A stretch of 64,000 nucleotides of DNA from Candidatus Heimdallarchaeum aukensis (GTDB lineage: Archaea > Asgardarchaeota > Heimdallarchaeia > Heimdallarchaeales > Heimdallarchaeaceae), in the NCBI GenBank assembly GCA_021513695.1, contig CP084166.1, forward strand, positions 64,001 through 128,000. Reading direction: 5' to 3'. Positions 1 to 16,922 of this stretch are shown here, piece after piece. Both the position numbers and the translations under genes were made by a program. The notes under the pieces are model-generated. The model made no database searches. It was not told the DNA's origin and saw only the letters and a program-made list of their open reading frames with translations. Positions within the stretch are counted from its first letter, which is position 1, and the number at the start of each line of letters is the position of its first letter.

Positions 1-931
1 AAATATTAATAAGATTACTTTGTTTCATCATAGGGCAAATCATATTACTGTCTACAAACTTCAGATGGGGATATTCTACTTTCATTCGATCAATGAAACC
101 TTGTTCAGTAACAAACAACACTTCTTTCGATGTCTTACTTGATTTAGAAAATCTGTGCATATCTCCTGTTCCCCCTACTAAATCAGAAATCTCAACAACT
201 TCAGGTTTACACTCAAAATGAGAAAAAACTAAAGTGTCTTCATTTTTCTTTAGTTGCTCTAGTTTTTCTTTTGTAATTCTATCATGTGTTCTGCAATGTC
301 CTCTGTAAGTGATAATCTTCTTTCCTGTAACTTTAGCTAAGTTTACTCCCATATTGTAATCAGGGACGAAAATAATTGTATCACTATCTAATTTCTCAAT
401 AATTTTTCTTGCATTTGCAGAGGTACAACAGACATCAGCTTCAGCTTTTACATCAGCAGTTGTATTGACATAGCAAACAACAGGAGCTCCAGGATATTTC
501 TTTTTTAATTTTCTAACATCCTCCCCAGTTATTGAATCTGCTAAAGTGCAACCTATTCCTCTTTTTGGAACTAAAACAGTTTTTTCAGGATTAAGAATTT
601 TGGCTGTCTCAGCCATGAATTCTACACCACAAAAGAGAATAATGTCTTCTTTAACTTCAGTTGCTTTCTTGGATAATCCTAAACTATCTCCTACATTATC
701 TGCAATACCAAAAATAATATCTGGAGTCTGGTAAGAATGAGCTAGAATATGTACTCCTTTTTTCTTCTTGAGTTTGTTAATTCTTAAAGTTAAAGGAGCG
801 ATATCTAAACAGTCATTTAACGTCCATCCTAAATGACCTAGCTTTGAATATAGTCTCTGTACTTCATTTTCTATTTCATCTTGTGTAAAGCCAAATGTAA
901 TCTGTTCAATCTGATTTTCAATAACTACCAT
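1..931 (-). CDS. nadA: Quinolinate synthase A (NadA). Partial: the C-terminal end runs off the window start.
   Basis: Reverse-complement translation from the ATG at 931-929 gives MVVIENQIEQ...HILAHSYQTPDI...GVEFMAETAKIL...GCTLADS...YVNTTADVKAEADVCCTSANA...FVPDYNMGVN...ICPMMKQ. It contains the three Cys-containing blocks and the HxYQ, FMAETAK and CTSxNA signatures of NadA. The six-frame track omits it because it is truncated by the window edge. Confidence 0.8.
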   Translation of the reverse strand, partial: MVVIENQIEQITFGFTQDEIENEVQRLYSKLGHLGWTLNDCLDIAPLTLRINKLKKKKGVHILAHSYQTPDIIFGIADNVGDSLGLSKKATEVKEDIILFCGVEFMAETAKILNPEKTVLVPKRGIGCTLADSITGEDVRKLKKKYPGAPVVCYVNTTADVKAEADVCCTSANARKIIEKLDSDTIIFVPDYNMGVNLAKVTGKKIITYRGHCRTHDRITKEKLEQLKKNEDTLVFSHFECKPEVVEISDLVGGTGDMHRFSKSSKTSKEVLFVTEQGFIDRMKVEYPHLKFVDSNMICPMMKQSNLINI

Positions 932-961
932 TTTTTAGACCAAGTAACGCTTCAATGAAGG

Positions 962-969
962 TATATAAA
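962..969 (-). promoter_or_regulatory. Candidate archaeal TATA box (TTTATATA on the minus strand) for nadA.
   Basis: Plus-strand GTATATAAAG at 961-970 reads TTTATATA on the minus strand, about 30-35 nt upstream of the nadA ATG (931). Confidence 0.35.
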
Positions 970-1345
970 GGAAATATGCTTTAGGAAAATATTACAAGAT
1001 TTTTTTGAAAAGAACTAATGTAACATAGAAAATAAATGCATTTTTAGAAAAATACAAGCAAAAATTGCCTAAATATAATAAAAAGGTGTTTTTTATTTTA
1101 AGGCATATCTAAAGAACTCTTGAGAATACTACTAATCGTTAAATTATTTAAAAATTATATACTCCCATTAGTATAAATTATAATCTTTTATTATAGGGTT
1201 ACAATTCTATAGATTTGAAGCATTGTTATTTTTTGTTATTTCTAGCTATCATTCTATTAATAATTAAACACAAGATAAATAAATAAAATTACAAACAATA
1301 AAATGATTAACTAACATAATTGTAAGTAGATTATTTGGTGTGAAA

Positions 1346-2392
1346 ATGAACATATTAATGGTTATAGCTGAAGAAGAAGTTTTTAGAAACTTTGCTGATA
1401 CAATTAAAGAACAATTAACAAGTAATTCAGATAATATCTCCTTTTCAGAAATTACAGAAAGTGAACTCGACACAACTCTACAAAACTCTACCTATACAAG
1501 AAATATTAAAACAACAGATCTTGTCATTTCTGTTGGAGATACAGGGACATTCTTAAAATCTATCTTTTTGTCAAATGGAGAAAAACCCGTTATTGCAGCT
1601 TCTTCAGAAAAGATTAGTTTCTTTACTGAAATGACACCCAACAATCTTGAGGAAGCTGTAGCTTCAATATTATCTAAAAGTTACACAATAGATGAATATA
1701 ATAGAGTAGTTCTACAAGATGCAGTGTCAAATGAATACTTGCCCGCATTAAACGAAATAGCTATTTTTCCAAATCGGTCAGCACAGCTAATGAGCTATAC
1801 ACTAACATTAGATAATAATTATATATATAGAGGAAGAGCTGATGGTATTATTGTTTCAACTCCCTTAGGTTCTACAGGCTATGCACTCTCTGCCAATGGT
1901 CCAATTGCTTATGGAAATCCAGACATTACTCTAATTGTACCTGTAAATCCTTTGAATAAAGATCACCATCCTGTTGTTGCCCCTGCGGAGTCTATCATAT
2001 CAATAACTAATTTAAAAGCGAAAACCCAAATAGAAGTTATAATAGATGGTCAAATTAGGAAGAAAATAGATGGACAAACAATTAAAATATTGAAAGCTAG
2101 AAAGAAAGCAAAAATAGTAAGAATTAGCAAAAATATAAATATTGTATCTAGATTAAGAAATAGGTTAGTAGAACTTGACCTACAATCATTAGAAGGTGTT
2201 CCTCCTTCAGCAAAATACATTTTTAAGTTACTACATACAGAGGGAGAAATGACACAAAGTGAAATAATACAAAGTACAGGTTTACCTTCAAGAACAGTTA
2301 GAAATGCACTCAAAATACTTAGTGAAAAAGGGTTAATTGGAAAAAGGAGATATCTACATGATGCAAGACAATCTATTTACTTTTTAATATGA
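1346..2392 (+). CDS. NAD(+)-kinase-like domain with degenerate catalytic motifs, fused to a C-terminal winged helix-turn-helix domain.
   Basis: DGIIVSTPLGSTGYALSANGPI matches the NadK C-terminal signature DGxxxSTPTGSTAYSLSAGGP. The GGDGT motif is altered to VGDTGT and the NE/GxLGFL block is not canonical. The C-terminal ~90 aa (VSRLRNRLVELDLQSLEGVPPSAKYIFKLLHTEGEMTQSEIIQSTGLPSRTVRNALKILSEKGLIGKRR) looks like a MarR/TrmB-type wHTH. The track start at 1340 is GTG; the first ATG is at 1346. Confidence 0.65.
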   Translation: MNILMVIAEEEVFRNFADTIKEQLTSNSDNISFSEITESELDTTLQNSTYTRNIKTTDLVISVGDTGTFLKSIFLSNGEKPVIAASSEKISFFTEMTPNNLEEAVASILSKSYTIDEYNRVVLQDAVSNEYLPALNEIAIFPNRSAQLMSYTLTLDNNYIYRGRADGIIVSTPLGSTGYALSANGPIAYGNPDITLIVPVNPLNKDHHPVVAPAESIISITNLKAKTQIEVIIDGQIRKKIDGQTIKILKARKKAKIVRISKNINIVSRLRNRLVELDLQSLEGVPPSAKYIFKLLHTEGEMTQSEIIQSTGLPSRTVRNALKILSEKGLIGKRRYLHDARQSIYFLI

Positions 2393-2520
2393 CAAGCATA
2401 TTTATTATAAGACACCTCTCTAGAACAACATACTTTTTATTGGTTTTTAAAAATATTGTTTGTATTACTATTATTACAAAAATTATTATTTGTTTATATA
2501 CTAACAATATACCTCGAAGA

Positions 2521-2543
2521 AAGGCAAAAGACTGTTTTGCCTT
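2521..2543 (+). terminator. Perfect 9-bp stem hairpin (AAGGCAAAA-gactg-TTTTGCCTT) followed by a T-rich tract.
   Basis: Seen directly in the sequence. It lies downstream of the NAD-kinase-like gene and upstream of the promoter region of the giant gene. Confidence 0.35.
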
Positions 2544-2606
2544 ACATGATTTTTAAACTTTAAATTTGACTGCTAAAAATGCAACTTTTCAAGGCTTGTA
2601 GTACAT

Positions 2607-2614
2607 TTTATATA
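2607..2614 (+). promoter_or_regulatory. Candidate TATA box (TTTATATA) upstream of the giant-protein operon.
   Basis: The consensus archaeal TATA octamer sits about 95 nt upstream of the ATG at 2710. This implies a 5' UTR of about 70 nt. Confidence 0.3.
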
Positions 2615-2709
2615 TTAATTATCGTATAGTACTCTTTAGAGTTCTGGGATTGGAATTGGGGCTATTATTTCCTGGAGTAAGTAATTGAAAATTGAAAAGA
2701 AGTGTAAAA

Positions 2710-5700
2710 ATGAAAAAAAGTAAAATTAAAGTTATTTCTATTATCGCTATTTTTCTTCTCATCTTGAACGTCTCGACGATATACGTTCAAGGTCAGATGG
2801 TAGGTAATGAAACTAAATTAATGATGACTGGAAATCCTACAGAAGTTTATGAAGATCAGATAGCGATTCTGTATGATCCATTTAATGATATGACAAGAGA
2901 ACTAGCAAATTCGATTTATGAGACTGTTCATATGTTTTATTCTAACGTGAAAATGGTCAAAGTTTTCAATTTAGATTCATTTAACAGAGCTTTTTATGAT
3001 GATGATTGGATTAAAATCTATGTTTTCGACTCTGACTTAAAAGGAATAAAATTTGCTGGTTGGACAATGTCATGGAGAAAACTAACTGGATACTACAATG
3101 TTTTCAAAGATACAAGGCACATTGGAGTTTATGGAAACTCATACAAGATGGGTCCATATCTTAAGACTGAAAACTGTTATATAGAAAATACAGAGATTCT
3201 AGATTATCGTATTGCTTACATTCATGTATTGTGGTCATTATATGATATTTTTACAGAAAAAGAAGATGAAATTCTTCAACAAATAGGAGAAAATTTCAAA
3301 TTAATAGCAATTAAATATTTTGGAGATTCATTTGAAGAAATAATGTCTGCCGAGTTTGATCCACAAGGATTAGGTGTTGTTGACCCAAAAAAGGCAGAAG
3401 AAAGATTACAAGATTCAATGGACCAATATCCAAAGAGATTAAATAAAGTTAATCCATATACGGGTGAGTTAGTTGATCCAACAGCAGAGATTGAAGGATT
3501 TAATCCTGTAATGGATATTAAACCCAAAGCAGCGATAGATGAAGATGACATTGTTTTAGGTGAGTTTCCGTTCTTATCTTCGATTCCTGGAGCTGCAGGT
3601 GACGTTATTAAAATAATTTTAGAGTTTATAGGTGTCGAGATACCAGAAGGTTTATTGACTGTAGGTAAAGAATATGGGGGGCAGATCGTCGCAATAATTA
3701 AAGAGATACCTAAAATTATTGGTTTCTTTAAGGATCCAAGTGCAAGTAGTGCTATTGAACTATTTTTTGATGTAGCAAAAGAAATGTTTCCCAGTATAGA
3801 AGAATATAAGCCCTACTTCGATATAGTAGTGAAAGCCCTATTTTCGATAAAAGATATTGCTTCAGGGGATCTTACTCCTTTAATTGATATATCAATGGAA
3901 CTTCTACGATTTATAATTCCTGATAGTGTAGGAGATTTTGTTGACGATGTTTTTGATGCTTTAAACATATCAAGTGCCCTTTCTGATATTATTAGTGGAG
4001 TTACTAATGTTGGTGATTATCTTAAGAGTTTTCTCAATAGGCAACTAATTACAAATTTAATGAAGAAATTTATTGAACAGACTTTAGATCTAGGGGGAGA
4101 ATCCCAAAAATGGATAGATACCATTTCAGAGATTATTATGATTGCTTATGAAATTGCCAGCACTCGAGATATGGATCACATAATAGCGGATGTCTTTCCA
4201 CGATTAGGAAAATTAGTTTACAAGAACATCTTAGATATGACCTATGATGAAAATGTAGAAAATACCTTCAAAGGAATTGCTGTTGCAATTAAGATGGGTT
4301 TTGGAGCTGCTGGAATCATTGATGTTAATCTTAAGGATTCATTTATGGATTTAATAGGCTTCTTCTTCCCTGACCTCGTTGAGACAGTTAATGATGTTAA
4401 ATTCTTTGTTTCAAGTATTAGGTCTCAAATTGATTCCTTTATGGATCTTGTTAAAGATGTTTCAGAAGGTAAAAATCTAGATGTAAACAACGTTCATGAC
4501 CAAATTATATCTTTAATTACTGAGCTTAGTTCATTATCAGGTCATTCTCTCGATGCAAATAAGATAAATGTACTCTCTCAAGCTGTTTTGATGGCTTTAG
4601 CTCTAATAAATGGTGATTTTGAAGCTTTAAGTGATACTAGCTGCCTAACAAGTCTAGTTGATGGATTTCTAGAACATTTTATTGGACTAGAAGAAGGTCC
4701 TAGAGAAATTGTACAAAAGGCAATAGAAGCTGGAGCAGCTATTTTACCTTTCATTACTGGGAAAAAGAGTTTGAAAAAATATATTATGGGAAGACTTGAA
4801 GATTTTGCTGACAAATTCAAGAATCCTGGAGAAATAATTGAAAAGGTTCTTTATTATTTCCTAAGCAAGTACAACGCAAGTACTCAACTTTACCAACTTA
4901 TTGGAAAAATTGTAGGAATAGTCATTGACATCTTTTCTGGAGGATTTGACTTTTCTGTTCAAAATGTTATTCAGACAATAATCTCAATGGCAGTTGTAGT
5001 TTTGAACATGTTAGATGTCAATATTCCGTTAGAAGCAATGTACAAGAGTTTTCAACTTCTATGGGAAGAGGGGCCAGAATTTTCCAATGTTGTAAAAGTA
5101 GTTCAAGATATTATGGGATTACTTGGAGGAAGCATTGACCCAACAATTAAAACTACTGTAGAAACAGTTCTTACTTTTCTAGGAGGAGCAAAGAATATCT
5201 TCAAAGATGGAATAAAATGGATAATGAACCAACTTGTAGGTTGGGCAGCAGGGCAGATTGCTAATTTATTAAATATGCTTACTGATAAATTAAATGAACT
5301 GTTCCAATCTCTTGGTGATTTGGTAAGTTATGATTCTGAATTCCCAATTGGTTTCGGAAGTTTTACTGCCTTCCAGATGCGAGTATTCTTCTCTTTAAGT
5401 CCTGGATTCGAAATTAACCCTGAACCAATTCAAGAGCTCATTATGAGTATGATTTTTGATGGGTCAAAGGTTTTTGATCTCGATAATATCGGAGAATTGT
5501 TTAAGCTTATCTTAAAATCAATTTCAATTATTCCTATTTTCAAAGCTGGACTTGAAATCAAAGCAGGAACGTCTGGAAAGAACGACTTAATGAAGATGCT
5601 CCTTGATTCTCTTGGTCTGGAACTTTCATTCTCTGGCTCTGCAGGACTAACACTGCAATTAATGAAGATTTCTAATGGTAAAATAAGTACTAGTGATTTC

Positions 5701-8700
5701 TTCAAAGTAATAGAATTCTTCTTTAAATTCCAGATATCAATAGCTAAAACATTCCCATTAGCAGAATTTCTAGGTCCAGGAGGAGCAGTTTTAGCTAAAG
5801 TTGCAGAATTCTTAGGTTTAGGTGGAATTTACCTAAAGATAGAGTTCTTTATAGCAATAGAAATTGTTAAACGATGTGAGACACCTACTCAGAAGGCTGC
5901 AGATATTTTAACAATTGTAATAGGAATAGGTGTTTCTGTAATTATTGATATCGACTTGGTAATTGTTGGAATAAAAATAACTATAGGTTTTGTAGTGACG
6001 CTGACGTTTATCCAGGACTTCTTGGCGGACGCACCGCTGCAAGTGATACTCGAGATAGAGTTCACTGTAGCGGTGAAACTGACGTTCTTGTTCGTCGACT
6101 GGACAGGAACAGCGTCATGGGGTCCAGATCCAATTTATCTGGCAGGAGGACCGGATGATGAAAGCACAAAAGACGAAATGAGCGGCTTGGACGCAGATGG
6201 GGATGGGTTACCTGATTCATATGAGTTAGGAGTTCCAGGAATGAAAGTAGACAGCGATGACAGTGATGGAGACGGTTTATCAGACCAATTCGAAGTGAAA
6301 ACGAGTAAAACAGACCCTATCACTGCAGATTCTGACGATGATGGTCTAGATGATTACATGGAATATGAAGTCTTAAAGACCAATCCTCTACAAGTAGATA
6401 GTGACTATGATGGTTTAACTGACTATGAAGAAGTTGTTATCTATGGAACTGATCCTAATGCACAAGATACAGATGGTGATCAATTAGATGACTATTACGA
6501 AGTAAATACTGCATGGAATATCACTGGAATAACTCCAAGTGTAAGATTTGTTACAATTGGGGGAGTAGAGTATAAAGATCATACTGATCCTCTTAATCCT
6601 GATACTGATGGTGATGGACTTCTAGATGGACAAGAAGGAGAATTTGGGGCTTATTATGGACCAGAATTGTATAACACTTCAGACCCAAGTTGGGATCCCT
6701 ATCCAATATTCTACAATCAAGGATATACTCATCCATTAGATAATGATACCGATGATGATTCTTATAAACAATTAGCAAATGGAACTATAGCTCCAGATCG
6801 TCAGTTCTTAATCTATATGTCTGATAAGGTAGAAATAGATGGACAATGGGTTATTTTCATTGAAGATGATGAATTAATGGGTAGAGTAGTTAGAACTAAC
6901 CCAATTAACCCTGATACTGATGGTGATTCAGCAGTAATGGATAAATCTTGGAGAGGTGATGGGGCTCCTCTTGACTTTTTCCTGAAGTCTGATGGTTACG
7001 AACTCTGGTTAGATCCGCCGACAGACCCGAATGACGCGGATATGGACGATGATGGATTAATTGACGGTTTAGAGGGTTGGGGTAATAAGATCAGTAATCA
7101 TACTGATCCTCGTAATCCTGATACTGATGGTGATGGACTTGGAGACCTGCAAGATATTCTACTCGGTTCGGATCCTTTGAACCCTGATAGTGATATGGAT
7201 GGAATTCTAGATGGTGAGGAGTTCTTCAAGTATGGAACTAACCCCGCTTATGAAGATACAGATCATGATGGGCTTTTGGATGGTGAGGAAGTTTATCTAT
7301 TCCACACAAACCCTCTGGCGGTAGATAGCGATGGAGATGGGATAGATGATGGAATGGAGGTATTAGTTTATGGTTCAGACCCGATGGATGAAGATATGGA
7401 TAACGACGGTCTAACAGACTGGGAAGAGATTTTCTACTACTTTACCAATCCTAGAGATTACGACTCAGATGATGATGGTCTAAGTGATGCTATGGAGGTT
7501 TTAGATGAATATGCTATATACACTGACCCATTGAATTGGGACTCTGATAATGATTCAATCACATATCCTAATGAAAACGGAAATTATACTTTCCCACTTT
7601 CTGATGGAGATGAAGTACTAATTTACGGAACTGACCCATTGACAAGCGATACTGATGGAGATGGATTGCACGATTCGTTTGAACTATATCTTGGTTCAGG
7701 TTTAATTTACAACTTTACTCCTGTACCTTTGGATCCGTTATCTAACGATACTGATGGAGATGGAATATATGATGCAAATGAATACCACATTGCAAATGTC
7801 TCTAACATCATTTATCCTTATGTTAGTTTTATCATCACCCAACCTTACAATACTTCTCCAGTAGATCCAGACTCTGATGATGACGGGATTATCGATGGAG
7901 ACGAAGTCTATGTATATGGAACTATGCCAGATATGAAAGATACAGATGGAGATGGACTAGACGATTGGAGTGAACTTAATATTATGTATACTAACCCTCT
8001 GAGTTCGGATACGGACAATGACTATCTGACAGATTGGGAAGAATGGTATGCGGGTTTTGAACATCCAGGATATCTACTTGATCCTAACGACCCTGATTAT
8101 GATAATGATATGCTGCCAGATGGGCCAGAGTTACTACTTTACGGTTCTAATCCTAATAATGCCTATGAGATTGATCCAAGTTCAGGAAAAGTCGATGGTC
8201 TGTTGATGGATTGGGACCATGATGGTCTAGAAGATGGTTTAGAGTTCTTTGTATACAACACTAGTTATGTAGCAGGAGGAGGAGTCACCCAGCCAGATAG
8301 TGATAGAGATGGTTTGATGGATGGTGCAGAAGTATATGTTCATGGTACAGTCCCCACGAATTGGGATACTGACAATGATACATATAGTGATGGATTAGAA
8401 GTGATGTTAGGACTAGATCCTCTTACATATACAACAGAAGAGGAATTTATAGCAGCTCTATCTGCAAATCAAGATATGCTAGAAGCAGGAGTACTAGTTA
8501 TCTCACCAATAGAAGGTGGAATTTACTCTCCTTCTAACTATACTTTCATCCTCTATAACGTGACAGAACTACTGGGCGTACAATATCAAATGAAGAAGAA
8601 CAAACAAGATTTCGGAGACAACATGAGTATGTACTATGATGATGTTTCAAGGACGTGGATAACTCAAGGAGATTATATTGGACCTGGAGATTATATCGTC

Positions 8701-8913
8701 AGATTTTATGTGACAAAACCTGATGGAAATGTTTCGTTTATAGAACGGACGTTTTATGTCGAAGGAAGTCCAGTTGTCTCTCTACCTTGGGTCTTTGCGG
8801 GAATAGGTGGGGGAGTAGCTATTGGTGTTGCTTCAACTTTGACCGTTTATGCAGGAAGAGCAGGAAAACTGCGATTCTTAAAGAATATCTTTAAAAGAGG
8901 AGGTGCTTCATAA
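2710..8913 (+). CDS. Giant (about 2068 aa) cell-surface protein with three parts. An N-terminal signal/anchor is followed by about 1100 aa of helical region of unknown function. About 25 thrombospondin-type-3-like calcium-binding repeats (DxDxDGxxDxxE) follow, ending in a C-terminal TM helix.
   Basis: The N-terminus MKKSKIKVISIIAIFLLILNVSTIYVQG is hydrophobic. Residues ~1150-1900 contain many repeats such as DADGDGLPDSYE, DSDGDGLSDQFE, DTDGDGLLDGQE, NPDTDGDGLGDLQD, DSDGDGIDDGME, DTDGDGLHDSFE and DTDGDGLDDWSE. The C-terminus VFAGIGGGVAIGVASTLTVYAG is hydrophobic and followed by basic residues. The track start at 2692 is TTG; the ATG at 2710 is more plausible. Confidence 0.8.
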   Translation: MKKSKIKVISIIAIFLLILNVSTIYVQGQMVGNETKLMMTGNPTEVYEDQIAILYDPFNDMTRELANSIYETVHMFYSNVKMVKVFNLDSFNRAFYDDDWIKIYVFDSDLKGIKFAGWTMSWRKLTGYYNVFKDTRHIGVYGNSYKMGPYLKTENCYIENTEILDYRIAYIHVLWSLYDIFTEKEDEILQQIGENFKLIAIKYFGDSFEEIMSAEFDPQGLGVVDPKKAEERLQDSMDQYPKRLNKVNPYTGELVDPTAEIEGFNPVMDIKPKAAIDEDDIVLGEFPFLSSIPGAAGDVIKIILEFIGVEIPEGLLTVGKEYGGQIVAIIKEIPKIIGFFKDPSASSAIELFFDVAKEMFPSIEEYKPYFDIVVKALFSIKDIASGDLTPLIDISMELLRFIIPDSVGDFVDDVFDALNISSALSDIISGVTNVGDYLKSFLNRQLITNLMKKFIEQTLDLGGESQKWIDTISEIIMIAYEIASTRDMDHIIADVFPRLGKLVYKNILDMTYDENVENTFKGIAVAIKMGFGAAGIIDVNLKDSFMDLIGFFFPDLVETVNDVKFFVSSIRSQIDSFMDLVKDVSEGKNLDVNNVHDQIISLITELSSLSGHSLDANKINVLSQAVLMALALINGDFEALSDTSCLTSLVDGFLEHFIGLEEGPREIVQKAIEAGAAILPFITGKKSLKKYIMGRLEDFADKFKNPGEIIEKVLYYFLSKYNASTQLYQLIGKIVGIVIDIFSGGFDFSVQNVIQTIISMAVVVLNMLDVNIPLEAMYKSFQLLWEEGPEFSNVVKVVQDIMGLLGGSIDPTIKTTVETVLTFLGGAKNIFKDGIKWIMNQLVGWAAGQIANLLNMLTDKLNELFQSLGDLVSYDSEFPIGFGSFTAFQMRVFFSLSPGFEINPEPIQELIMSMIFDGSKVFDLDNIGELFKLILKSISIIPIFKAGLEIKAGTSGKNDLMKMLLDSLGLELSFSGSAGLTLQLMKISNGKISTSDFFKVIEFFFKFQISIAKTFPLAEFLGPGGAVLAKVAEFLGLGGIYLKIEFFIAIEIVKRCETPTQKAADILTIVIGIGVSVIIDIDLVIVGIKITIGFVVTLTFIQDFLADAPLQVILEIEFTVAVKLTFLFVDWTGTASWGPDPIYLAGGPDDESTKDEMSGLDADGDGLPDSYELGVPGMKVDSDDSDGDGLSDQFEVKTSKTDPITADSDDDGLDDYMEYEVLKTNPLQVDSDYDGLTDYEEVVIYGTDPNAQDTDGDQLDDYYEVNTAWNITGITPSVRFVTIGGVEYKDHTDPLNPDTDGDGLLDGQEGEFGAYYGPELYNTSDPSWDPYPIFYNQGYTHPLDNDTDDDSYKQLANGTIAPDRQFLIYMSDKVEIDGQWVIFIEDDELMGRVVRTNPINPDTDGDSAVMDKSWRGDGAPLDFFLKSDGYELWLDPPTDPNDADMDDDGLIDGLEGWGNKISNHTDPRNPDTDGDGLGDLQDILLGSDPLNPDSDMDGILDGEEFFKYGTNPAYEDTDHDGLLDGEEVYLFHTNPLAVDSDGDGIDDGMEVLVYGSDPMDEDMDNDGLTDWEEIFYYFTNPRDYDSDDDGLSDAMEVLDEYAIYTDPLNWDSDNDSITYPNENGNYTFPLSDGDEVLIYGTDPLTSDTDGDGLHDSFELYLGSGLIYNFTPVPLDPLSNDTDGDGIYDANEYHIANVSNIIYPYVSFIITQPYNTSPVDPDSDDDGIIDGDEVYVYGTMPDMKDTDGDGLDDWSELNIMYTNPLSSDTDNDYLTDWEEWYAGFEHPGYLLDPNDPDYDNDMLPDGPELLLYGSNPNNAYEIDPSSGKVDGLLMDWDHDGLEDGLEFFVYNTSYVAGGGVTQPDSDRDGLMDGAEVYVHGTVPTNWDTDNDTYSDGLEVMLGLDPLTYTTEEEFIAALSANQDMLEAGVLVISPIEGGIYSPSNYTFILYNVTELLGVQYQMKKNKQDFGDNMSMYYDDVSRTWITQGDYIGPGDYIVRFYVTKPDGNVSFIERTFYVEGSPVVSLPWVFAGIGGGVAIGVASTLTVYAGRAGKLRFLKNIFKRGGAS

Positions 8914-11900
8914 TGCACGTAAAAAATAATTTAATTTGGAAGAAAGTATTAATCCTTTCTTTATTAGCTATAATGATTAGTTCACTAGTAGTAGGAATGC
9001 CCAATGCTCCGTTTGTTAATGCAGAAACTAATTCTGCACAATCTTTGCCTGATACAATAAGTTTAGAGGAAGCTAAACAACTAATGCAACAAATAAATGA
9101 AGGCAATGGTGGGGGCAACTTTGCTTCTGTTGAGCAACAAATCATTGATCCTGATTTAGATTTAAGTAGGTTATTAGCTGATAATCCTAATGAATATCAA
9201 CAAACATATCAACCTTGGAAATCTCAAGCTGCTGTTAGAAGTATAACCATCTCTGATGATTATGAATTTATGGCAGTAGGGGGAGGATATCTCTTTGACA
9301 ACGAAGTACAAGTATATCGATGGAACCCTGATATTAATCAATATGCTAAAGTTTGGGTGAGTGGAGATTCAGTTATTAAAGGCGATGTAATAGATGTCGA
9401 TTTTGGAGATACTGATAATAATGATTTCTTAGAAATTATTGCCACATCTTCTGACGGGTATTTCTACGTCTTTGAACAAGAACATATTTTTGACCCTGTA
9501 ACAAATACAGAAAATAGATTTGATCTTGTTTACACTAGTCCTTATTTAGGTCAAGTGTGGGGTGTAGAAGTTAATGATACAGATTTAGATCATCTAGACG
9601 ATATAATTGTCGTAAGTTGGGATCACAAAGTACATGTTTATGAATATTGGTTACACTCTGGTTATCCATTCAATTCAGAACATTGGATTACATATAGAGA
9701 AAAATGGCAAAGTCATGATACAGGTTATCATTTGTCTTCTTTAGTTGTTGGAGATACAAACTATAATGGTCTTCCAGACTTTGTTGTGGGAACGAGAGAA
9801 GGAGCTATTCTAGTTTTCGAAAATAATGGAACTATTTTAGATATCCAAGGACAACCTTATCCTCTTGCCCAAGATAATAGTTACAAATTAATTTATGCTG
9901 ATAATGAGTCAATTTGGAGACCAATTTACTCTATGGATATAGGTAATCTAGATAACTCTCCAGGAGATGAAGTAGTAATAGCTTCCTTTGCTTTTAATGG
10001 ATACATTCTAAGGTATGATGATTATAAAGGATATTACTTACAGAAGCTGATAAAAGACTTTGAATCTTGGACTTTGAAAGACTTTTATCCTGCAGATCAT
10101 TATGTAGATAATGGAACAGCAGGACAAAATGTATATTTCCAAGATCCAAATTATACAGGAACAACAGTTGAAGAGCCTATTTTGCAAAGTAATCCTGCAT
10201 TTATAAAAGGAAACTATCCCTATAATACTGGAGCTGCGCAAAATAATGATACATGTTATACTCATTTCGAATCTAATAGTACTCATGCTGCATGGGAAGT
10301 ATATGATTTTGGAGCAGATGAAGAGGGAACAGGAAATGGGAATGATGCTGCAGACATATTATTAAAATTCAAAACTTTACTATTTGATTACATATATAGA
10401 GATGATTTTATTATTTCTATCTCTCCAGACTATGAACATTGGGTAACTGTTGATCCTTCTCTTATTAATACATTTAATGTTGCCGCATCAACAAAATATC
10501 TCAGAATTAATGTAGATCCAATTTTAATTGAAAATAAATGGAATTACTTCAGATACATCAATGTAACAGTAATTTCTAATTCTACCAAAGATTATAACTT
10601 GTTATCTATAGAATTGCCTTATGTTTACCAAACTGTTTCAACAGCTTTAAGTGCTGAAGTGGGAACTTTAATGACCAGTACAGATACTAATGAAGAAGTT
10701 ATCCATGCAATTTTAGGAACAGTTGATGGCCGTCTTGTAGCTTTTAAATATGATGCCACTTCAGACTCGTTTGTTTTATCTTGGGATAGCTGGGTAGATG
10801 ATAGATTTACTGTTGGAATAAACATATGGGATATAGAACAAGTTAAGAATCTAGGCTCTATGCCTATGATATACGGAGTTACTGATTTGGAAACAGGTTA
10901 TCAACTTAGGATAAGTCCCTCTCCAGGAAGCCAAATTTCACAAGTGATTTTTGATTATACATTGTTCAATATTGATGGAGATTCTCCAGTTACAGGCGAA
11001 TTTGCAATTGTGGGTGGTAATGGAGATGTGTATTACTTTGATAATGGATTTGATTATGATGCTGCACAAACAACCCAATACTTCTCTTCGATCAACGATT
11101 ATGCAACTTATACAGGAAATATATCAATAGGTGCAGTAGAAATTGATACAGACTATTCCCAAGAAGAATTACTTATCGGTCATTACGATCCAAGTCTTTC
11201 TAATCAATACGATGACTTTGAAGATGATTCTTCAGATGTACTTCCAGCAGATATAAAAATATGGACACAAGTATCTTCAAAATATGAGTTAAATATATCA
11301 CTTTATAGTTTGGAAACAACTGGTCAACTTCGTGAAATATTAAAAAGTGCTCAATCAATTCCTTCAGCAGAAGGAGAGGATATTGATGGGGACGGAGATG
11401 TTGATATTGTTGTTTGTATTGAGAATCTATATCTACTTTGGAACATAGGAACACCAAGTAATCCAGAATTTATTTTGGATTCTGATTACTTTAAAGATAT
11501 AAATGAAGTAAAAGGAAGAAGACAATTCCTACATCCTCAATTTGTGGAATTTGAAATGGATGGAATTTATGATCTATCGATTGGCTACTCAAATAGAGTG
11601 GGAGCAACATATTTTGATAATTATGGAACTGCTCTTGCTCCTAAATGGGAAGAAAGAAAAGAGTTAGTTAACAACTTTGATGAAGAAGCTACAATAAATG
11701 TCTATAACTTTACTAGACCTCTCTGGATAAAATATTCAGAATTTGATGAATATTCTACTTTGTTATTAGAACATAATACAGGAAAGAGCTACTATGACAA
11801 GTACTACATATATACAATGCTAGATGATAGAAATGGTGACATGGTTTACTTCATGATTTCAAATAAAATACAAACTAGCTTCATGGTAGCATCTAATCCT

Positions 11901-14900
11901 ACTGTATCTAGAATCGAAGTTAACACCTTCAAATCTGAAGAATATGGAGGGATCTATAAGTGGAGGAATTTTGGATTTAGGGCAATTATAAGCTGGACGA
12001 CAGCAATAGATCTCTATAATTGGACTTTGACTGTAGATTCTGGAGATTTAGACCAAGATGGGAAAGGAGAAATTATAGTAGGAGACTATGATAGTAATGT
12101 ATACATCTTTGAGCATATGACTAATAATACTTACAAACGTGCATTCAGGTCTCCTGATATGCTCCAGTATGTTCCAACTGATGAAACACCTTATAGTTGG
12201 GACAAATTTGGAGGATATGAAGGAGAGTTTAATCAGACAATTTGGAACCATGTGAGCTATTTGCTTGTGAATGCTGATAGTGATGGAGACGGTTATCTTG
12301 AGTTAGCTGCTCTTGCAGGAACAGTTCTGTATGTATTTGAAGACACGGGAATAGATGATACATACTCATACATGTATAGACTAGATGTTTTAAGGAGTTC
12401 AGCAGGAGAATACTTGAAAGAAAATGGTTTTCTTACACCTTCTGGTTTAACATGGGCTCAAGATTTAGATTTAGATGGTTATGGAGAGTTCATAATAGCC
12501 TTTGAAAAACAAGTATTTGTTTATGAACCTTATTCTGGAACACTCTATGAACTGTTTGGTAATGTTGCATCTGATGACCCTGAAACAGGACACTATAATA
12601 TTTTAGGAAATGCTAGGGTATTTGATAATATTACAATAAATGGAATGTTATGTTCTGACATTAATGAAAATGGAAGAGAAGAACTTTTCATTTATGGTTC
12701 TGTAGATGTTGATCTTCTTGATTATGAAGAAGGATTTATTGTAATGATTGAAAGCATCGATCTAGGCTATAAGATAATCTGGCAAGGACCAACAGAGTTA
12801 GTTAGTAGAAATATTATTACAGACCTTGAAATTGCTGACCAGGACTATGATGGTTTCAAAGAATTGATCATTGGTGGAAGTAAAGGTGTAAGTATTTACG
12901 AATTTGTTGGAGGAACAACTGCTAGCTTTACTCAAGAGGGACTAATTACAGGACACATGAATTATCCCCAAATGGCAGCTCATTCACTATTTGGAAAATA
13001 TAGTTACAATGATGATTATGACTATAGAAAACAGAGGTCTCATGATATAAGACAGATAGTTTACAGTGGAGGTTCAAATAATCATTCATATATTTCTGCT
13101 TTTAGTGAGTATAACGATACAATGGGTGCATATGCTATATATCAAAAAGTAAGTCATGACGGAGTAAATTGGTTATCGAGCAAACTTATAGCTTATTGGT
13201 ATTCTGGTGGTTACATAAGTTTATACTTCCCCTCACTTACACAGACAAGTAATTACTCTCTCTGGTTAGCAGTTACTTGTAAATTTTATAGCGTAGGTTT
13301 AGGTTCCGTATATGGCGTTCTTCTATATCGTTCAGATGATTATGGGGCAAATTGGGTATTCGTAGATGGATTGGCTTCAGAATATATAGAAGAAGGTTCA
13401 ACAAATCCGATATATTCACCCACAATATTCCCAACAGGACCTAATTCAATAGGTTTAGTGTATATTTTCAGACCAAATAACACTTATTCAGAATTATACT
13501 ATGGAGGGTTATTTGATAATGGAACAGTAATACCTCAAACAAAAATCGAGGGTTTTGATGATTTCATGTTCAACGGTGTTGATGTTGATTCAAAACCTGA
13601 TAATAGTGGAGTATATGCTGCTGCTTTTAGTGCTAAAAAGTATATTGAAGAAAAAGATGATTACGATATCTGGTACTGTGAATTTAATTCAACCTATGGA
13701 TTAATACTTGAACCAAGAAGACTATTTACTTCATTCTCTGTTGAGCATACTCCTAGTATTACTTATGTCCACAATGATGCCTATTCTAGACTTCTAACAT
13801 TTGATTCTTCTGGATTACAAAAGGCGATGACTTTATCATATGGAATGGTTTCTGATGATGGAATACATTGGTCTGACCCAGATATACTTGCTGAATATCC
13901 AGAGTATATTATTCCTCCAACTAAGTCAAACCCCTATCCAAAGATATCTGGTTTCTCTAACAGTTGGAGTATATATGATCTAGGTTTCAGAGCTCCAAAA
14001 GTTGCTCCAACCTACGATGGTAAATTCATATTACTTACAAAATTTGATGCAACTATTGTCTACTTCTCATTCCCAATCTTCTATATATATTATTATAATG
14101 ACTACGTAAGCCAAATTTATCCATTGAACTTTACAAGTTTTGTAGGGTTAAACACTGTAACAGATCTTGCTGTTGGAGACTCGGATAGAGATGGTAGAAA
14201 AGAGATAATGATAGCTGATGGATATCGAGCAGAAATGTTTGAGTTACTTAACACAAAAAATAGGAAGCAACTTTATACAAGCAAATGGTATAGTCCTGAG
14301 CATGATAATCCTGTTTCCGATGTAACTATGTTTGACACAAATGGTAACGGTTTTCCTGAACTAATTTACAGCGTTCAAGGCGAAGACATTTATGTATATG
14401 ATGTTGTAAATATTCATTTACCAAAGGCAGATTTACATAAATTACAATCAACTACTTTAGACTTATCTGGTGCTGGAAAGGTTATAACTAGAATTAAATC
14501 AGATCTAAATGATGACGGAATAAATGACATGGTGGTTTATTGCGAAGGAGGAAAAATGTATGGAATCTTAGGTAATAACCTGTCAATTTTATGGACTTTG
14601 GAAGATTCATTAGTTTCTCCAAATTGGTTCCTCGAAGAATCAATTTATCATGGTAATAGTGCTCTAATTTTTGTAAATAGTAATGGAACAACTTTGTGGA
14701 TAGACAAGAAAACAGGACAAGTTATAACCTCTCTTGATTTAGGTGAAGGAAGTTATACCTTAAATCCAATAGCAACAATGCTTAACTATACAAAGGATAA
14801 CACCATGGACATTGCCATTAAAGGTGATGCTCCTGGACATATTTATCTCTTTGACGGGAATAATGGTTCGCTTCTAAAGGATCTCACTTTCGACACTGAA

Positions 14901-16922
14901 AGATATGTGCAAGAAATTGAAGTAGCACATGAGCAAGGAGAGGATTATCTCATAGTTTCTTATTATTGGATAGAATATAAAGACCTAGGTGGCGGTATTA
15001 TTGTATGGATATTCCATGGAAAGATTACTGCTTACAACTTATCTTCGTCCTCACTAGATCAAATATGGGAAGTTAACTCTTACTATGCTGGAGGATTTAG
15101 AGGGGCAAATTTAATAGTAGATGATATTAATGGAGATGGAGATTCAGAAATATATGCATTTGGTGGTGGAATAAAATTACTTGATGCTAATGGTACTGAA
15201 TATTGGCGGGCTTACAACTATTTCTACTCTTATGATGCTGTTATATTTGATATAAATGATGATGGAATTAAAGATATAATTACTTCTTCAGGACAGAATA
15301 GTAAAGTTACAGCTCTTGATGGAAAAGATGGAAATGTTACTTGGAGTAATATACCCACCCAGAATATCTATGACTTAGAGATTAGTGACCCAGAAGGAGA
15401 AGATCCAATCCTTTATCTAGCTAACTCTAGAACAGATTATCAAGGAATAATTTTCTTAAACATTAGGAATGGTGGGTTCTTAGGTTACTATTACGACACA
15501 AGTAGTGATTTTCTAAATGATAACGCATTGGTACCAACCACTGTGGATTCAAAACCTGCAGTCTTAGCAGTTGATTATGACGCAGAGAAAATTTATCAAG
15601 TTCAAATAAATGAAACAGAACAAGTTTATGAGCATGATATTATACCTAAACTCTCCTTTGATCAAATACTTAAAACTGGAAAGAATGTTAACCCCGATAC
15701 TGTTATTTATGACAATCTAAACGACGATGAGTATGTAGAAATTTTCTATATACAAAATGGAAATGAGTCATTCATCTATAATCCAATCAAAGGTGAGTAT
15801 ATTGAAGAATATACTATCCCTACAAATGGGAGTGTTCTTTATGCTTTCAAAGCTAATTTATCTGACACTTCATTCTATGATTCTATTTTTATAATTACCT
15901 CTGAATACAAGGTAGGTGTTTTAGATCTCACTTCAATGAGTTATAAAAAGATATTGGACTTATCAGGTTATGTAGATGAAATTGCTTCATATGCTTACTT
16001 GGATATTACTGAAGATGTATTTATTTTAGGTTTCTTTGACTATACAAAGAAAGCATGGTACGTAGGCGCATGGAATATTAAAGGAGAAGAGGTATTCTCA
16101 CCTATTTACCAAGGTTCTCATAAACCAGATCAAATAAATGCAGGTAAATTACTTGATAAAGCCACGTATGAAGAAGGAGCAGCTTTTGTAATAACAAGCT
16201 TTGGTGCATACATATATGCTTATGATCTTAAGGGAACACAACTAGCTATGATTAAACAAGATGGACCTGCAGGTTTCACAGCTTTAGGAGAACTGAAAAA
16301 AGGATTAGGTTTTGAGTTTGTTTACTATAGGTTTGGAGATAAATTCTACTGTTATAACCTTAATACCATGACTGATGAATGGTCATCTACTTTAAGAAAT
16401 GACAATGAACTATTATCTATTGCTGTAGGATATATTGATAGCTCTACTAATCCTGATTATGCTAAAGTATTTGTTTCGCAGAGCGGTACAGGAATTTATG
16501 CATTTGATGATGTAGATAAAGAGTTATGGTATCACAGACATAATTCTTTTGTTGCTAAATTCCTTCATGTGATCAATGATGAAGCTTTAGGCAAGGTTCT
16601 TCAAGTTACAGATTATCATAGAACATTCTACATCAATGGAACAACTGCTGAAGTTTTATATGCTACAAGTACCTTGATGAAACAAGTTCTTTGGGTAGGA
16701 ACATGGTCTTCTCCAGACTCTGCATATGACTCAATAGCATTCTTTGATGGAAACTCATTCTATAGTCGAGGAATAGATGTTTCTTCTTCAGGAGCTTCAA
16801 CAGTGCAAGATCATATGGAAATCTCTGCAGAAAGGTTAACAAGACTTAGTACTCCAATAATTATAATGATGAGTGTAATGGTAACCATAATCACTCTTGT
16901 CTTCAGAAAAAATAAAAGTTAA
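8913..16922 (+). CDS. Giant (2669 aa) integrin-alpha-like surface protein. It has multiple FG-GAP/VCBS-type beta-propeller blades, BNR/Asp-box motifs, PQQ-like blades and a C-terminal TM anchor.
   Basis: N-terminal signal: LILSLLAIMISSLVVG. Repeated blade motifs at about 60-aa spacing include FGDTDNNDFLEIIA, DTDLDHLDDIIVVS, GDTNYNGLPDFVVGT, DIDGDGDVDIVVC, DLDQDGKGEIIVGDYD, DSDGDGYLELAAL, DLDLDGYGEFIIA, DINENGREELFIYG, DQDYDGFKELIIGG, DSDRDGRKEIMIADG, DTNGNGFPELIYS, DLNDDGINDMVVY, DINGDGDSEIYAFGG and DINDDGIKDIITS. BNR-like motifs are RSDDYGANW and VSDDGIHWSDP. The C-terminus is TPIIIMMSVMVTIITLVFRKNKS. Its start overlaps the upstream stop as TAATG, and it is preceded by a GGAGGTG Shine-Dalgarno-like sequence. 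Confidence 0.8.
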   Translation: MHVKNNLIWKKVLILSLLAIMISSLVVGMPNAPFVNAETNSAQSLPDTISLEEAKQLMQQINEGNGGGNFASVEQQIIDPDLDLSRLLADNPNEYQQTYQPWKSQAAVRSITISDDYEFMAVGGGYLFDNEVQVYRWNPDINQYAKVWVSGDSVIKGDVIDVDFGDTDNNDFLEIIATSSDGYFYVFEQEHIFDPVTNTENRFDLVYTSPYLGQVWGVEVNDTDLDHLDDIIVVSWDHKVHVYEYWLHSGYPFNSEHWITYREKWQSHDTGYHLSSLVVGDTNYNGLPDFVVGTREGAILVFENNGTILDIQGQPYPLAQDNSYKLIYADNESIWRPIYSMDIGNLDNSPGDEVVIASFAFNGYILRYDDYKGYYLQKLIKDFESWTLKDFYPADHYVDNGTAGQNVYFQDPNYTGTTVEEPILQSNPAFIKGNYPYNTGAAQNNDTCYTHFESNSTHAAWEVYDFGADEEGTGNGNDAADILLKFKTLLFDYIYRDDFIISISPDYEHWVTVDPSLINTFNVAASTKYLRINVDPILIENKWNYFRYINVTVISNSTKDYNLLSIELPYVYQTVSTALSAEVGTLMTSTDTNEEVIHAILGTVDGRLVAFKYDATSDSFVLSWDSWVDDRFTVGINIWDIEQVKNLGSMPMIYGVTDLETGYQLRISPSPGSQISQVIFDYTLFNIDGDSPVTGEFAIVGGNGDVYYFDNGFDYDAAQTTQYFSSINDYATYTGNISIGAVEIDTDYSQEELLIGHYDPSLSNQYDDFEDDSSDVLPADIKIWTQVSSKYELNISLYSLETTGQLREILKSAQSIPSAEGEDIDGDGDVDIVVCIENLYLLWNIGTPSNPEFILDSDYFKDINEVKGRRQFLHPQFVEFEMDGIYDLSIGYSNRVGATYFDNYGTALAPKWEERKELVNNFDEEATINVYNFTRPLWIKYSEFDEYSTLLLEHNTGKSYYDKYYIYTMLDDRNGDMVYFMISNKIQTSFMVASNPTVSRIEVNTFKSEEYGGIYKWRNFGFRAIISWTTAIDLYNWTLTVDSGDLDQDGKGEIIVGDYDSNVYIFEHMTNNTYKRAFRSPDMLQYVPTDETPYSWDKFGGYEGEFNQTIWNHVSYLLVNADSDGDGYLELAALAGTVLYVFEDTGIDDTYSYMYRLDVLRSSAGEYLKENGFLTPSGLTWAQDLDLDGYGEFIIAFEKQVFVYEPYSGTLYELFGNVASDDPETGHYNILGNARVFDNITINGMLCSDINENGREELFIYGSVDVDLLDYEEGFIVMIESIDLGYKIIWQGPTELVSRNIITDLEIADQDYDGFKELIIGGSKGVSIYEFVGGTTASFTQEGLITGHMNYPQMAAHSLFGKYSYNDDYDYRKQRSHDIRQIVYSGGSNNHSYISAFSEYNDTMGAYAIYQKVSHDGVNWLSSKLIAYWYSGGYISLYFPSLTQTSNYSLWLAVTCKFYSVGLGSVYGVLLYRSDDYGANWVFVDGLASEYIEEGSTNPIYSPTIFPTGPNSIGLVYIFRPNNTYSELYYGGLFDNGTVIPQTKIEGFDDFMFNGVDVDSKPDNSGVYAAAFSAKKYIEEKDDYDIWYCEFNSTYGLILEPRRLFTSFSVEHTPSITYVHNDAYSRLLTFDSSGLQKAMTLSYGMVSDDGIHWSDPDILAEYPEYIIPPTKSNPYPKISGFSNSWSIYDLGFRAPKVAPTYDGKFILLTKFDATIVYFSFPIFYIYYYNDYVSQIYPLNFTSFVGLNTVTDLAVGDSDRDGRKEIMIADGYRAEMFELLNTKNRKQLYTSKWYSPEHDNPVSDVTMFDTNGNGFPELIYSVQGEDIYVYDVVNIHLPKADLHKLQSTTLDLSGAGKVITRIKSDLNDDGINDMVVYCEGGKMYGILGNNLSILWTLEDSLVSPNWFLEESIYHGNSALIFVNSNGTTLWIDKKTGQVITSLDLGEGSYTLNPIATMLNYTKDNTMDIAIKGDAPGHIYLFDGNNGSLLKDLTFDTERYVQEIEVAHEQGEDYLIVSYYWIEYKDLGGGIIVWIFHGKITAYNLSSSSLDQIWEVNSYYAGGFRGANLIVDDINGDGDSEIYAFGGGIKLLDANGTEYWRAYNYFYSYDAVIFDINDDGIKDIITSSGQNSKVTALDGKDGNVTWSNIPTQNIYDLEISDPEGEDPILYLANSRTDYQGIIFLNIRNGGFLGYYYDTSSDFLNDNALVPTTVDSKPAVLAVDYDAEKIYQVQINETEQVYEHDIIPKLSFDQILKTGKNVNPDTVIYDNLNDDEYVEIFYIQNGNESFIYNPIKGEYIEEYTIPTNGSVLYAFKANLSDTSFYDSIFIITSEYKVGVLDLTSMSYKKILDLSGYVDEIASYAYLDITEDVFILGFFDYTKKAWYVGAWNIKGEEVFSPIYQGSHKPDQINAGKLLDKATYEEGAAFVITSFGAYIYAYDLKGTQLAMIKQDGPAGFTALGELKKGLGFEFVYYRFGDKFYCYNLNTMTDEWSSTLRNDNELLSIAVGYIDSSTNPDYAKVFVSQSGTGIYAFDDVDKELWYHRHNSFVAKFLHVINDEALGKVLQVTDYHRTFYINGTTAEVLYATSTLMKQVLWVGTWSSPDSAYDSIAFFDGNSFYSRGIDVSSSGASTVQDHMEISAERLTRLSTPIIIMMSVMVTIITLVFRKNKS

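Follow-up and report, generated by a model that had tools for sequence, protein, structure and literature searches.

Control of a cofactor pathway by an enzyme-derived sensor fused to a winged helix-turn-helix (wHTH) module is a well-known regulatory principle, as exemplified by NrtR, ThiR, RbkR, NadR, and BirA. Among the regulators of NAD metabolism, NadR and NiaR are known only from bacteria, where they adjust expression of nadA, nadB, and pncB to the size of the pyridine nucleotide pool or of its precursor pool. A helix-turn-helix is fused to NAD-pathway enzyme domains (NMNAT and RNK) in NadR, and NiaR uses a 3H domain. In archaea, the ThiN-domain regulator ThiR joins an enzyme domain of a cofactor pathway to a MarR-like wHTH. 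Rex, which combines a Rossmann fold with an N-terminal wHTH, is an NADH/NAD+-sensing repressor of redox and fermentation genes. To our knowledge, no transcriptional regulator of NAD metabolism is known from Archaea; NadR, NiaR, and NrtR are all bacterial. Here we describe a gene located in a 64,000-nt stretch of the Candidatus Heimdallarchaeum aukensis genome (contig CP084166.1, positions 64,001 to 128,000; hereafter called the window) whose product fuses an NAD kinase (NadK)-like domain to a C-terminal wHTH. We conclude with moderate confidence that this protein is an NAD(P)-sensing NadK pseudoenzyme that regulates de novo NAD synthesis and probably also its own gene. The evidence, all obtained in silico, consists of the domain architecture, an asymmetric conservation of NadK motifs, a conserved synteny with NAD genes, and a conserved palindrome.

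The fusion gene spans positions 1346 to 2392 on the + strand and encodes 348 amino acids plus a stop codon, and a homologue search returned a protein of 100% identity (Ca. Heimdallarchaeum aukensis K9W45_00310). Its ATG at 1346 matches the starts of homologues in the alignment and is preceded, 7 nt on its 5′ side, by the Shine-Dalgarno sequence GGTG (1336 to 1339); a GTG at 1340 is an alternative start. Pfam assigns NAD_kinase_C (PF20143, 3e-22) to the protein and places the NAD_kinase N-terminal domain (PF01513) at 24.2 bits, just below the cutoff of 25.5. The protein scores far under every NadK equivalog cutoff in NCBIfam, wherein the best match is NF002984 at 150.8 bits versus a cutoff of 326. 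An AlphaFold2 model built from a 25-sequence alignment (predicted local distance difference test score, pLDDT, of 84.8) comprises a NadK body (residues 1 to ~262), a linker, and a winged helix. When compared by Foldseek, the NadK body matches the solved NadK structures 7qvs, 1y3h, 1u0t, and 1suw (E ~1e-23, template modeling (TM) score ~0.8).

An earlier note on this DNA had read the C-terminal region as a wHTH domain, and its geometry is indeed of the MarR type. The domain (2195 to 2389, + strand; residues 284 to 348) carries the recognition-helix signature PPSAK...RTVRNAL and was recognized by Pfam, AlphaFold2, and Foldseek. Pfam HTH_24 matches at its cutoff (21.9), and both MarR_2 (residues 284 to 345, 3.5e-5, 24.3 versus 27) and MarR (20.0 versus 24.6) fall below their gathering cutoffs. 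In the full-length model the winged helix occupies residues 287 to 347 with the topology a1-b1-a2-a3-b2-b3, and the C-terminal 65 amino acids modeled alone reach a pLDDT of 94.4. This isolated domain superimposes on MarR-family structures, including the DNA complexes 8ylg, 7el3, 4lll, and 1z9c, with query TM scores (TMq) of 0.85 to 0.93 and root mean square deviations of 1.0 to 1.6 Å. Residues P287, A289, L313, R316, T317, and R319 are invariant across the homologues aligned. The domain is a bare 65-residue module that lacks the flanking dimerization helices of MarR proteins, and it is joined to the NadK body by a linker (2141 to 2194, + strand) that includes a helix at residues 266 to 278, with a pLDDT of 53 to 61 for residues 261 to 280.

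The NadK body combines degenerate catalytic motifs with an intact NAD site. The sequence VGDTGT at residues 63 to 68 (nucleotides 1532 to 1549), singled out in the earlier note as a degenerate GGDGT motif, does occupy that position: alignments and a motif census place G64-D-T-G-T68 (1535 to 1549, + strand) there, and pairwise alignment with solved NadKs sets G-D-T-G opposite G-G-D-G, such that a Thr residue stands where the catalytic Asp should be. The GxLGFL block had been called absent. It is not canonical, but it is degenerate rather than missing, as the NxGxLGF(L) motif is represented by SSEKISFF (residues 86 to 93; 1601 to 1624, + strand), wherein the Phe is kept. By contrast with these changes, the NE motif of the NAD site (N136-E137; 1751 to 1756, + strand) and conserved region II, an NAD-binding and dimer-interface motif (D166-G...T172-P-L-G-S-T-G-Y179...S182..G185-P-I; 1841 to 1906, + strand), are retained. 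The C-terminal signature that the earlier note had recognized is thus present as DGIIVSTPLGSTGYALSANGPI at residues 166 to 187, encoded by those same nucleotides 1841 to 1906. In all, the protein keeps N136, E137, D166, G167, T172, G175, S176, T177, and Y179.

To place these differences in context, we built an alignment of 129 fusion proteins and 98 canonical NadKs. The canonical set consisted of 79 proteins from diverse bacterial loci and 19 from homologue searches, six of them from Archaeoglobi. The 79 bacterial loci came from a genome scan with a whole-protein alignment, which keyed on the generic TPxGSTxY motif and yielded one Thorarchaeota locus besides; these bacterial proteins served as the canonical controls. 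Residues N136, D166, G167, T172, G175, S176, Y179, and D234 are present in all 129 fusion proteins. The phosphoryl-transfer motifs are conserved to a far lesser degree. Of the GGDG residues, each found in 98/98 canonical NadKs, the second Gly persists in 18/129 fusion proteins, the catalytic Asp in 77/129 (replaced by Thr in 36, Ser in nine, and Ala in seven), and the last Gly in 54/129. For NxGxLGF, the Asn is kept by 97/98 canonical proteins versus 5/129 fusions, the first Gly by 98/98 versus 36/129, and the second Gly by 97/98 versus 41/129. Both motifs are intact in a single fusion protein, P0052. Within the Heimdall clade the catalytic position is never Asp (it is Thr, Ala, or Ser), and the adjacent Asp is also variable, giving the variants GDTGT, GGTGT, GDAGT, GDSGT, GSTGT, and GHTGT.

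The functions assigned to these residues in other NadKs give the asymmetry its meaning. The Asp of GGDG (Asp85 of Ppnk, Asp45 of LmNADK1) is the general base that deprotonates the 2′-OH, and the NAD site of Ppnk is built across the dimer from Asn159, Glu160, Asp189 of the neighboring subunit, Thr200, and Tyr202 (PMC8553519). The latter five residues correspond to N136, E137, D166, T177, and Y179 of the fusion protein. Thus, the substrate pocket is under strict selection and the phosphoryl-transfer machinery is not, a pattern that marks a pseudoenzyme which binds a ligand. For NrtR, an argument of this kind was made from conservation and was later validated experimentally (PMC2330246). The existence of P0052 with both motifs, of 77/129 proteins with the Asp, and of Heimdall-clade proteins without it suggests that the family documents how a bifunctional enzyme turned stepwise into a pure sensor.

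The fusion is not confined to one genome. A word-indexed search returned ~100 full-length proteins of 320 to 365 amino acids. When 1.84 billion representatives were searched exhaustively with HMMER, 69 clusters (50% identity) reached E ≤1e-30, and almost every one of them aligns to the query through residue ~346. Judging from the source names, they derive from Heimdallarchaeaceae, Thorarchaeota, Baldrarchaeia, Bathyarchaeota, Thermoproteales (including three Vulcanisaeta species), other Thermoprotei, and Nitrososphaerota. NadK-wHTH fusions are therefore a conserved family across several archaeal phyla. Their public labels are inconsistent and include NAD(+)/NADH kinase, ATP-NAD/AcoX kinase, sugar kinase, wHTH transcriptional regulator, and hypothetical protein.

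Synteny ties this family to NAD metabolism. In the window, the fusion gene diverges from nadA, encoding quinolinate synthase, whose N-terminal 310 amino acids are specified by positions 2 to 931 on the − strand (Pfam NadA, 5.5e-93; NF006878, 313 bits versus a cutoff of 294) and whose 3′ end extends beyond the window. We searched for NAD genes in the 4 to 6 kb fetched on each side of the fusion genes. A divergent nadA, in some loci followed by nadC or by nadC and an aspartate dehydrogenase gene, was found in 19 loci, a total to which a metagenome scan with a wHTH-only alignment contributed. Head-to-head arrangements with nadA-nadC occur in the Heimdall relatives represented by loci L004 and L001, the latter with an aspartate dehydrogenase gene nearby, and in L170, whose regulator is 88% identical to the window protein. 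The same layout is present in two Thorarchaeota genomes whose fusion proteins are merely 32% identical. In one locus (L105) nadA instead lies downstream of the fusion gene, and in three others (L005, L097, and L101) the gene directly 3′ of it is pncB, encoding nicotinate phosphoribosyltransferase (NF006415, 458 bits versus a cutoff of 243).

The two divergent genes of the window are separated by 414 bp (932 to 1345) with a G+C fraction of 0.20 to 0.23, in agreement with the ~400-bp AT-rich gap reported from the first inspection. An inverted-repeat finder applied to positions 925 to 1350 returned only AT-rich pairs of low complementarity and missed a 13-bp palindrome, which was first spotted by eye on comparing orthologous intergenic regions and has the consensus GGCAA-N3-TTGCC. 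The search for a palindromic operator in this region, which the earlier note had recommended, thus yielded a strong candidate, AGCAAAAATTGCC, at 1057 to 1069, with a GCAA-N3-TTGC palindrome. It is the sole match in the window, where 0.22 occurrences of the exact core GCAA-N3-TTGCC are expected. In a three-way alignment of the window with relatives whose regulator proteins are 88% and 66% identical, this site forms the longest invariant island apart from the nadA TATA region, and the DNA around it is diverged and carries insertions and deletions.

The palindrome recurs throughout the family. Of 17 nadA-regulator intergenic regions, 16 contain a match of 8/10 or better, and most matches are 9 to 10/10. 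Across 39 loci examined in 300-bp upstream windows (12 kb), 22 sites of at least 9/10 precede the regulator gene versus 0.43 expected from the remainder of the same loci (Poisson P ~4e-30, a value inflated because five loci had served to discover the motif and several are closely related to one another). Sites are also found upstream of pncB (L005, position 6995; L097, position 4221) and, in L105 (position 955), between the regulator gene and the downstream nadA.

Candidate promoter elements flank the palindrome. On the nadA side, the sequence TTTATATA (962 to 969, − strand) is a conserved island ~30 bp upstream of the nadA ATG and is a candidate archaeal TATA box, with a presumed promoter function. 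On the regulator side, the TATA-like box TAAATATAAT (1070 to 1079, + strand), of likewise putative function, abuts the operator ~270 bp from the regulator ATG. Such a T-A-rich box follows the palindrome in most loci, and in compact loci the strong site abuts a box located 50 to 70 bp upstream of the regulator ATG. In many loci a second, weaker site lies ~30 bp closer to nadA, beside its TATA box. The window has a possible counterpart, the weak proximal operator GGAAAATATTACA (984 to 996), which matches at 7/10 positions and lies just upstream of the nadA TATA box; it is weak evidence alone, and it falls in a conserved island, with similar sites equivalently placed in L001 and in L004.

Other features of these intergenic regions and operator-like sequences were noted. 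The Heimdallarchaeum intergenic region is two to four times longer than those of other clades (90 to 190 bp; L009, L010, L116, and others). An AT-rich, TATA-like block at ~1254 to 1290 is conserved with the 88% identical relative and, together with the GGTG at 1336 to 1339, suggests a separate proximal promoter for the regulator gene. The two sites are spaced by 73, 83, and 94 bp in the Heimdall clade and by ~30 bp elsewhere, which resembles whole helical turns; we set helical phasing aside as evidence since it depends on the weak proximal sites. An NAD+ riboswitch in the intergenic region was considered and rejected because Rfam gave no match there. Perfect or near-perfect copies of GGCAAATTTTGCC also occur within the nadA coding region, ~700 nt from its start, in three related loci (L116, 2371; L139, 2366; L148, 2388), and these may be internal operators or simply conserved coding sequence. 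A 9/10 operator-like sequence, AGCAATATTTGCC, lies inside the giant TSP3-repeat gene of a Heimdall relative (L001, 8521; L002, 2786), probably by chance.

From these observations we propose a model for NAD-responsive regulation. The sensor would be a catalytically disabled NadK body that keeps its NAD(P) pocket and has lost the GGDG Asp and the NxGxLGF phosphoryl-donor loop. Because the wHTH has no MarR dimerization helices, the pairing of recognition helices on a palindrome must come from the NadK body. A NadK oligomer could pair two wHTH domains, or four in a tetramer, on one operator or on two, in which case cooperativity between the two sites might be mediated by the oligomer. The wHTH pair is predicted to bind GGCAA-N3-TTGCC between the divergent nadA(-nadC) and regulator promoters and so to control both. 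Given that the NAD pocket spans the subunit interface and that the interface residue D166 is invariant, dinucleotide binding is proposed to stabilize the DNA-binding oligomer. The ligand would be the end product of the pathway, with NAD+ the likeliest and NADH or NADP(H) possible. When NAD is plentiful, de novo NAD synthesis would be switched off, as would pncB-dependent salvage in other lineages, and falling NAD would cause release. We favor repression at abundant NAD by analogy with NadR, NiaR, and NrtR.

Several observations weigh against this model. Some 50% of the loci in the family lack both an upstream site and nearby NAD genes, among them Vulcanisaeta, the Nitrososphaerota locus fetched, and the P0051 and P0063 groups, and the inflation of the enrichment statistic mentioned above acts in the same direction. 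In the Heimdall clade, 126 bp separate the strong site from the nadA ATG and 277 bp separate it from that of the regulator, a placement unlike the classical one for occluding a promoter. Within the clade, the N-terminal domain (GDTGTFLRAIF included) shows good conservation and so has some role, and some activity may remain in the other clades, whose members account for the 77/129 proteins with the Asp. Since NADP is essential, the fusion must moreover be active if it is the only NadK homologue in Ca. H. aukensis. These last points bear on an alternative in which the protein is NAD kinase and regulator at once, like RbkR, BirA, or NadR; a rewired catalytic loop would phosphorylate NAD and the protein would also bind the nadA operator, coupling NADP production to NAD synthesis. 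We regard this as unlikely. The entire NadK fold and NAD site are kept, the loop GDTGTFLR is conserved within the clade, and the fully canonical P0052 together with the Asp-bearing members indicates that the ancestor was probably an active fusion. In addition, no second NadK was found among the window open reading frames by a hidden Markov model scan of the 64 kb, the top 120 matches of a homologue search seeded with the Archaeoglobus fulgidus NadK were from Archaeoglobi only and included no second Ca. H. aukensis NadK, and no NadK entry was found in the supplements of Wu et al. 2022. Among canonical NadK representatives, those that come closest to the fusion belong to Altiarchaeota, Methanobacterium, and bacteria. 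RbkR is an archaeal precedent for such bifunctionality (PMC5397151). Nevertheless, the general base is missing from every member of the Heimdall clade, the adjacent Asp varies (G, S, or H) unlike an essential catalytic loop, the NxGxLGF Asn and Gly residues that 97 to 98 of 98 real NadKs retain are lost, and the equivalog scores are less than half of the cutoffs. In two other lineages, loci L095 and L101 pair the fusion with a separate NadK-like gene whose GGDG is intact, and so the fusion is not always the sole homologue, unlike the situation for RbkR and RibK. A specific form of this idea, in which Heimdallarchaeum has no canonical NadK and the fusion serves both as its sole NAD kinase, which would do without the otherwise universal GGDG Asp by means of either a rewired GDTGT loop or substrate-assisted catalysis, and as the transcription factor of the NAD regulon, strikes us as quite doubtful; if true, NADP production and de novo NAD synthesis would be coupled in one polypeptide in the archaeal lineage closest to eukaryotes.

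The ligand and the sign of regulation might also differ from those proposed. Every site lies between, and thus upstream of, both TATA boxes, an arrangement that fits activation equally well. A site upstream of the TATA box is the position typical of archaeal activators. The protein could accordingly be a transcription factor, perhaps an activator, that responds to the NADH/NAD+ or NADPH/NADP+ ratio in the manner of Rex, or to ATP, nicotinic acid adenine dinucleotide, or ADP-ribose. One and the same NadK pocket accepts NAD, NADH, NADP(H), and ATP through its AMP moiety (PMC8553519), loss of the GGDG loop could make room for a 2′-phosphate, and the effector of NrtR proved to be ADP-ribose rather than NAD (PMC2330246). 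The predicted targets, however, are genes of NAD biosynthesis and salvage rather than of redox metabolism or fermentation, which points to pool size over redox state. The sequence by itself favors none of these ligands over the others. We judge this alternative improbable. We give hardly any credence to the simplest reading of the public labels (NAD kinase, NAD(+)/NADH kinase, or sugar kinase), namely that the protein is a regular housekeeping NAD kinase whose C-terminal extension is inert, that its adjacency to nadA reflects pathway clustering, and that the palindrome arose by chance. The extension is modeled with high confidence as a MarR-type wHTH and its recognition-helix signature is invariant, the palindrome is strongly enriched and conserved across phyla, the catalytic motifs are degenerate, and a divergent rather than co-directional layout has been maintained across phyla. 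On this comparison with NadK structures and the 98 canonical NadKs, which leaves the NAD-site residues in place and the GGDG Asp missing, the window protein has neither an intact GGDG equivalent nor an extension lacking helix-turn-helix geometry. Motifs, synteny, and palindrome together support one of the two readings that the earlier note had suggested from the letters of the DNA, that this is an NAD(P)-sensing, NadK-derived regulator of de novo NAD synthesis; the other was a bifunctional kinase-regulator.

The short NadK-like proteins encoded beside some fusion genes are of interest in their own right. P0413 (286 amino acids) is encoded divergently from the fusion gene in L095 (~2234 to 3100, − strand), and P0403 (255 amino acids) adjoins it in L101 (6855 to 7626, + strand). 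Each has an intact GGDG motif and no NxGxLGF motif, and the grouping of P0403 with the fusion gene and pncB recurs on at least four contigs. These proteins could be the real kinases of their lineages or further divergent paralogues.

Additional observations concern the fusion proteins, their DNA-binding module, and the downstream genes. P0010 (379 amino acids) has a ~31-residue N-terminal extension in its public gene call (L004, 6001 to 6093) that is otherwise absent from the family, except that P0009 and P0018 probably carry one likewise; its start was probably called too far upstream, masking part of the intergenic promoter region. Stand-alone proteins of 85 to 95 amino acids with the wHTH signature PPSAK...LPxRTVR occur in ~40 metagenome loci (including L107, L117-L136, L140, L146, L160, and L165), sometimes as two copies per locus, and thus the DNA-binding module also exists as an independent family of small proteins. 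The sequence GGCAA-N3-TTGCC is weakly enriched upstream of their genes (7 versus 1.9 expected), and we make no claim that they recognize the same palindrome. Directly downstream of the regulator gene in the window are two giant open reading frames on the + strand, one with bacterial TSP3 repeats (2692 to 8913, 2073 amino acids) and the next with FG-GAP repeats (8895 to 16919, 2675 amino acids), both resembling proteins of the cell surface or of adhesin type. Synteny of the giant TSP3 gene extends to L001, L002, and L170.

If our model for an NAD-sensing pseudoenzyme is correct, then the archaeal gap in NAD regulation would be filled for Asgard archaea and much of Thermoproteota, with GGCAA-N3-TTGCC as the predicted operator and nadA-nadC-aspartate dehydrogenase, pncB, and the regulator's own gene as the predicted regulon. 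An essential, universal kinase would have been turned into a ligand sensor through decay of its catalytic loop while its substrate pocket was frozen. The annotation of these proteins as NAD kinase or sugar kinase means that metabolic reconstructions of Asgard archaea may count a non-enzyme as a source of NADP. The earlier note did not recognize the fusion as a described regulator class, and in the full-text literature searched, in which subscription journals are thinly covered, neither a regulator combining NadK with a wHTH nor an NAD regulon of archaea was described.

The closest parallel among known systems is NrtR, which also joins a C-terminal wHTH to an N-terminal effector domain that resembles an enzyme of NAD metabolism and whose catalytic signature is degraded, is linked to nadA, nadB, nadC, and pncB, has palindromic operators upstream of NAD genes, and includes proteins mis-annotated as enzymes (PMC2330246). 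The two nevertheless differ. The effector domain of the fusion is NadK-like rather than Nudix, the sensors have no sequence homology, the operator sequences are unrelated, the NadK pocket probably takes a dinucleotide as ligand in place of ADP-ribose, and NrtR is bacterial whereas the fusion family is archaeal (Asgard and Thermoproteota). Since Pfam and NCBIfam scans gave no Nudix match in the fusion protein, it is an analogue of NrtR and not a member of that family. RbkR offers a second parallel, as an archaeal regulator of a cofactor pathway that was found by comparative genomics and combines an enzyme domain with a MarR-like wHTH; its wHTH is N-terminal, it is catalytically active, and it never occurs alongside a stand-alone RibK (PMC5397151). 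The fusion protein, by contrast, has its wHTH at the C-terminus, carries degenerate catalytic motifs, and belongs to the NAD pathway.

The fusion shares the two-domain fold, the NE motif, and conserved region II with canonical NadKs (EC 2.7.1.23; 1suw, 1y3h, and 7qvs), and it departs from them by the changes of GGDG to GDTG and of NxGxLGF to SSEKISFF, by the added 65-residue wHTH, and by scores far below the equivalog cutoffs. It resembles MarR-family proteins in wHTH geometry, to within 1.0 to 1.6 Å, and in having a palindromic DNA target, here a candidate, yet it lacks their N- and C-terminal dimerization helices and their ligand pocket, which leaves both dimerization and sensing to the NadK body. 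Like Rex, it fuses a wHTH to a dinucleotide-binding domain and would make transcription responsive to pyridine nucleotides, but its sensor has the NadK fold and its predicted targets are NAD biosynthesis genes. Its domains are unrelated to those of NadR and NiaR. Even so, the fusion of an enzyme domain to a DNA-binding domain, the linkage to the corresponding pathway, and the shared candidate operator place it with the class of enzyme-domain-fused cofactor regulators that includes NrtR, ThiR, RbkR, NadR, and BirA.

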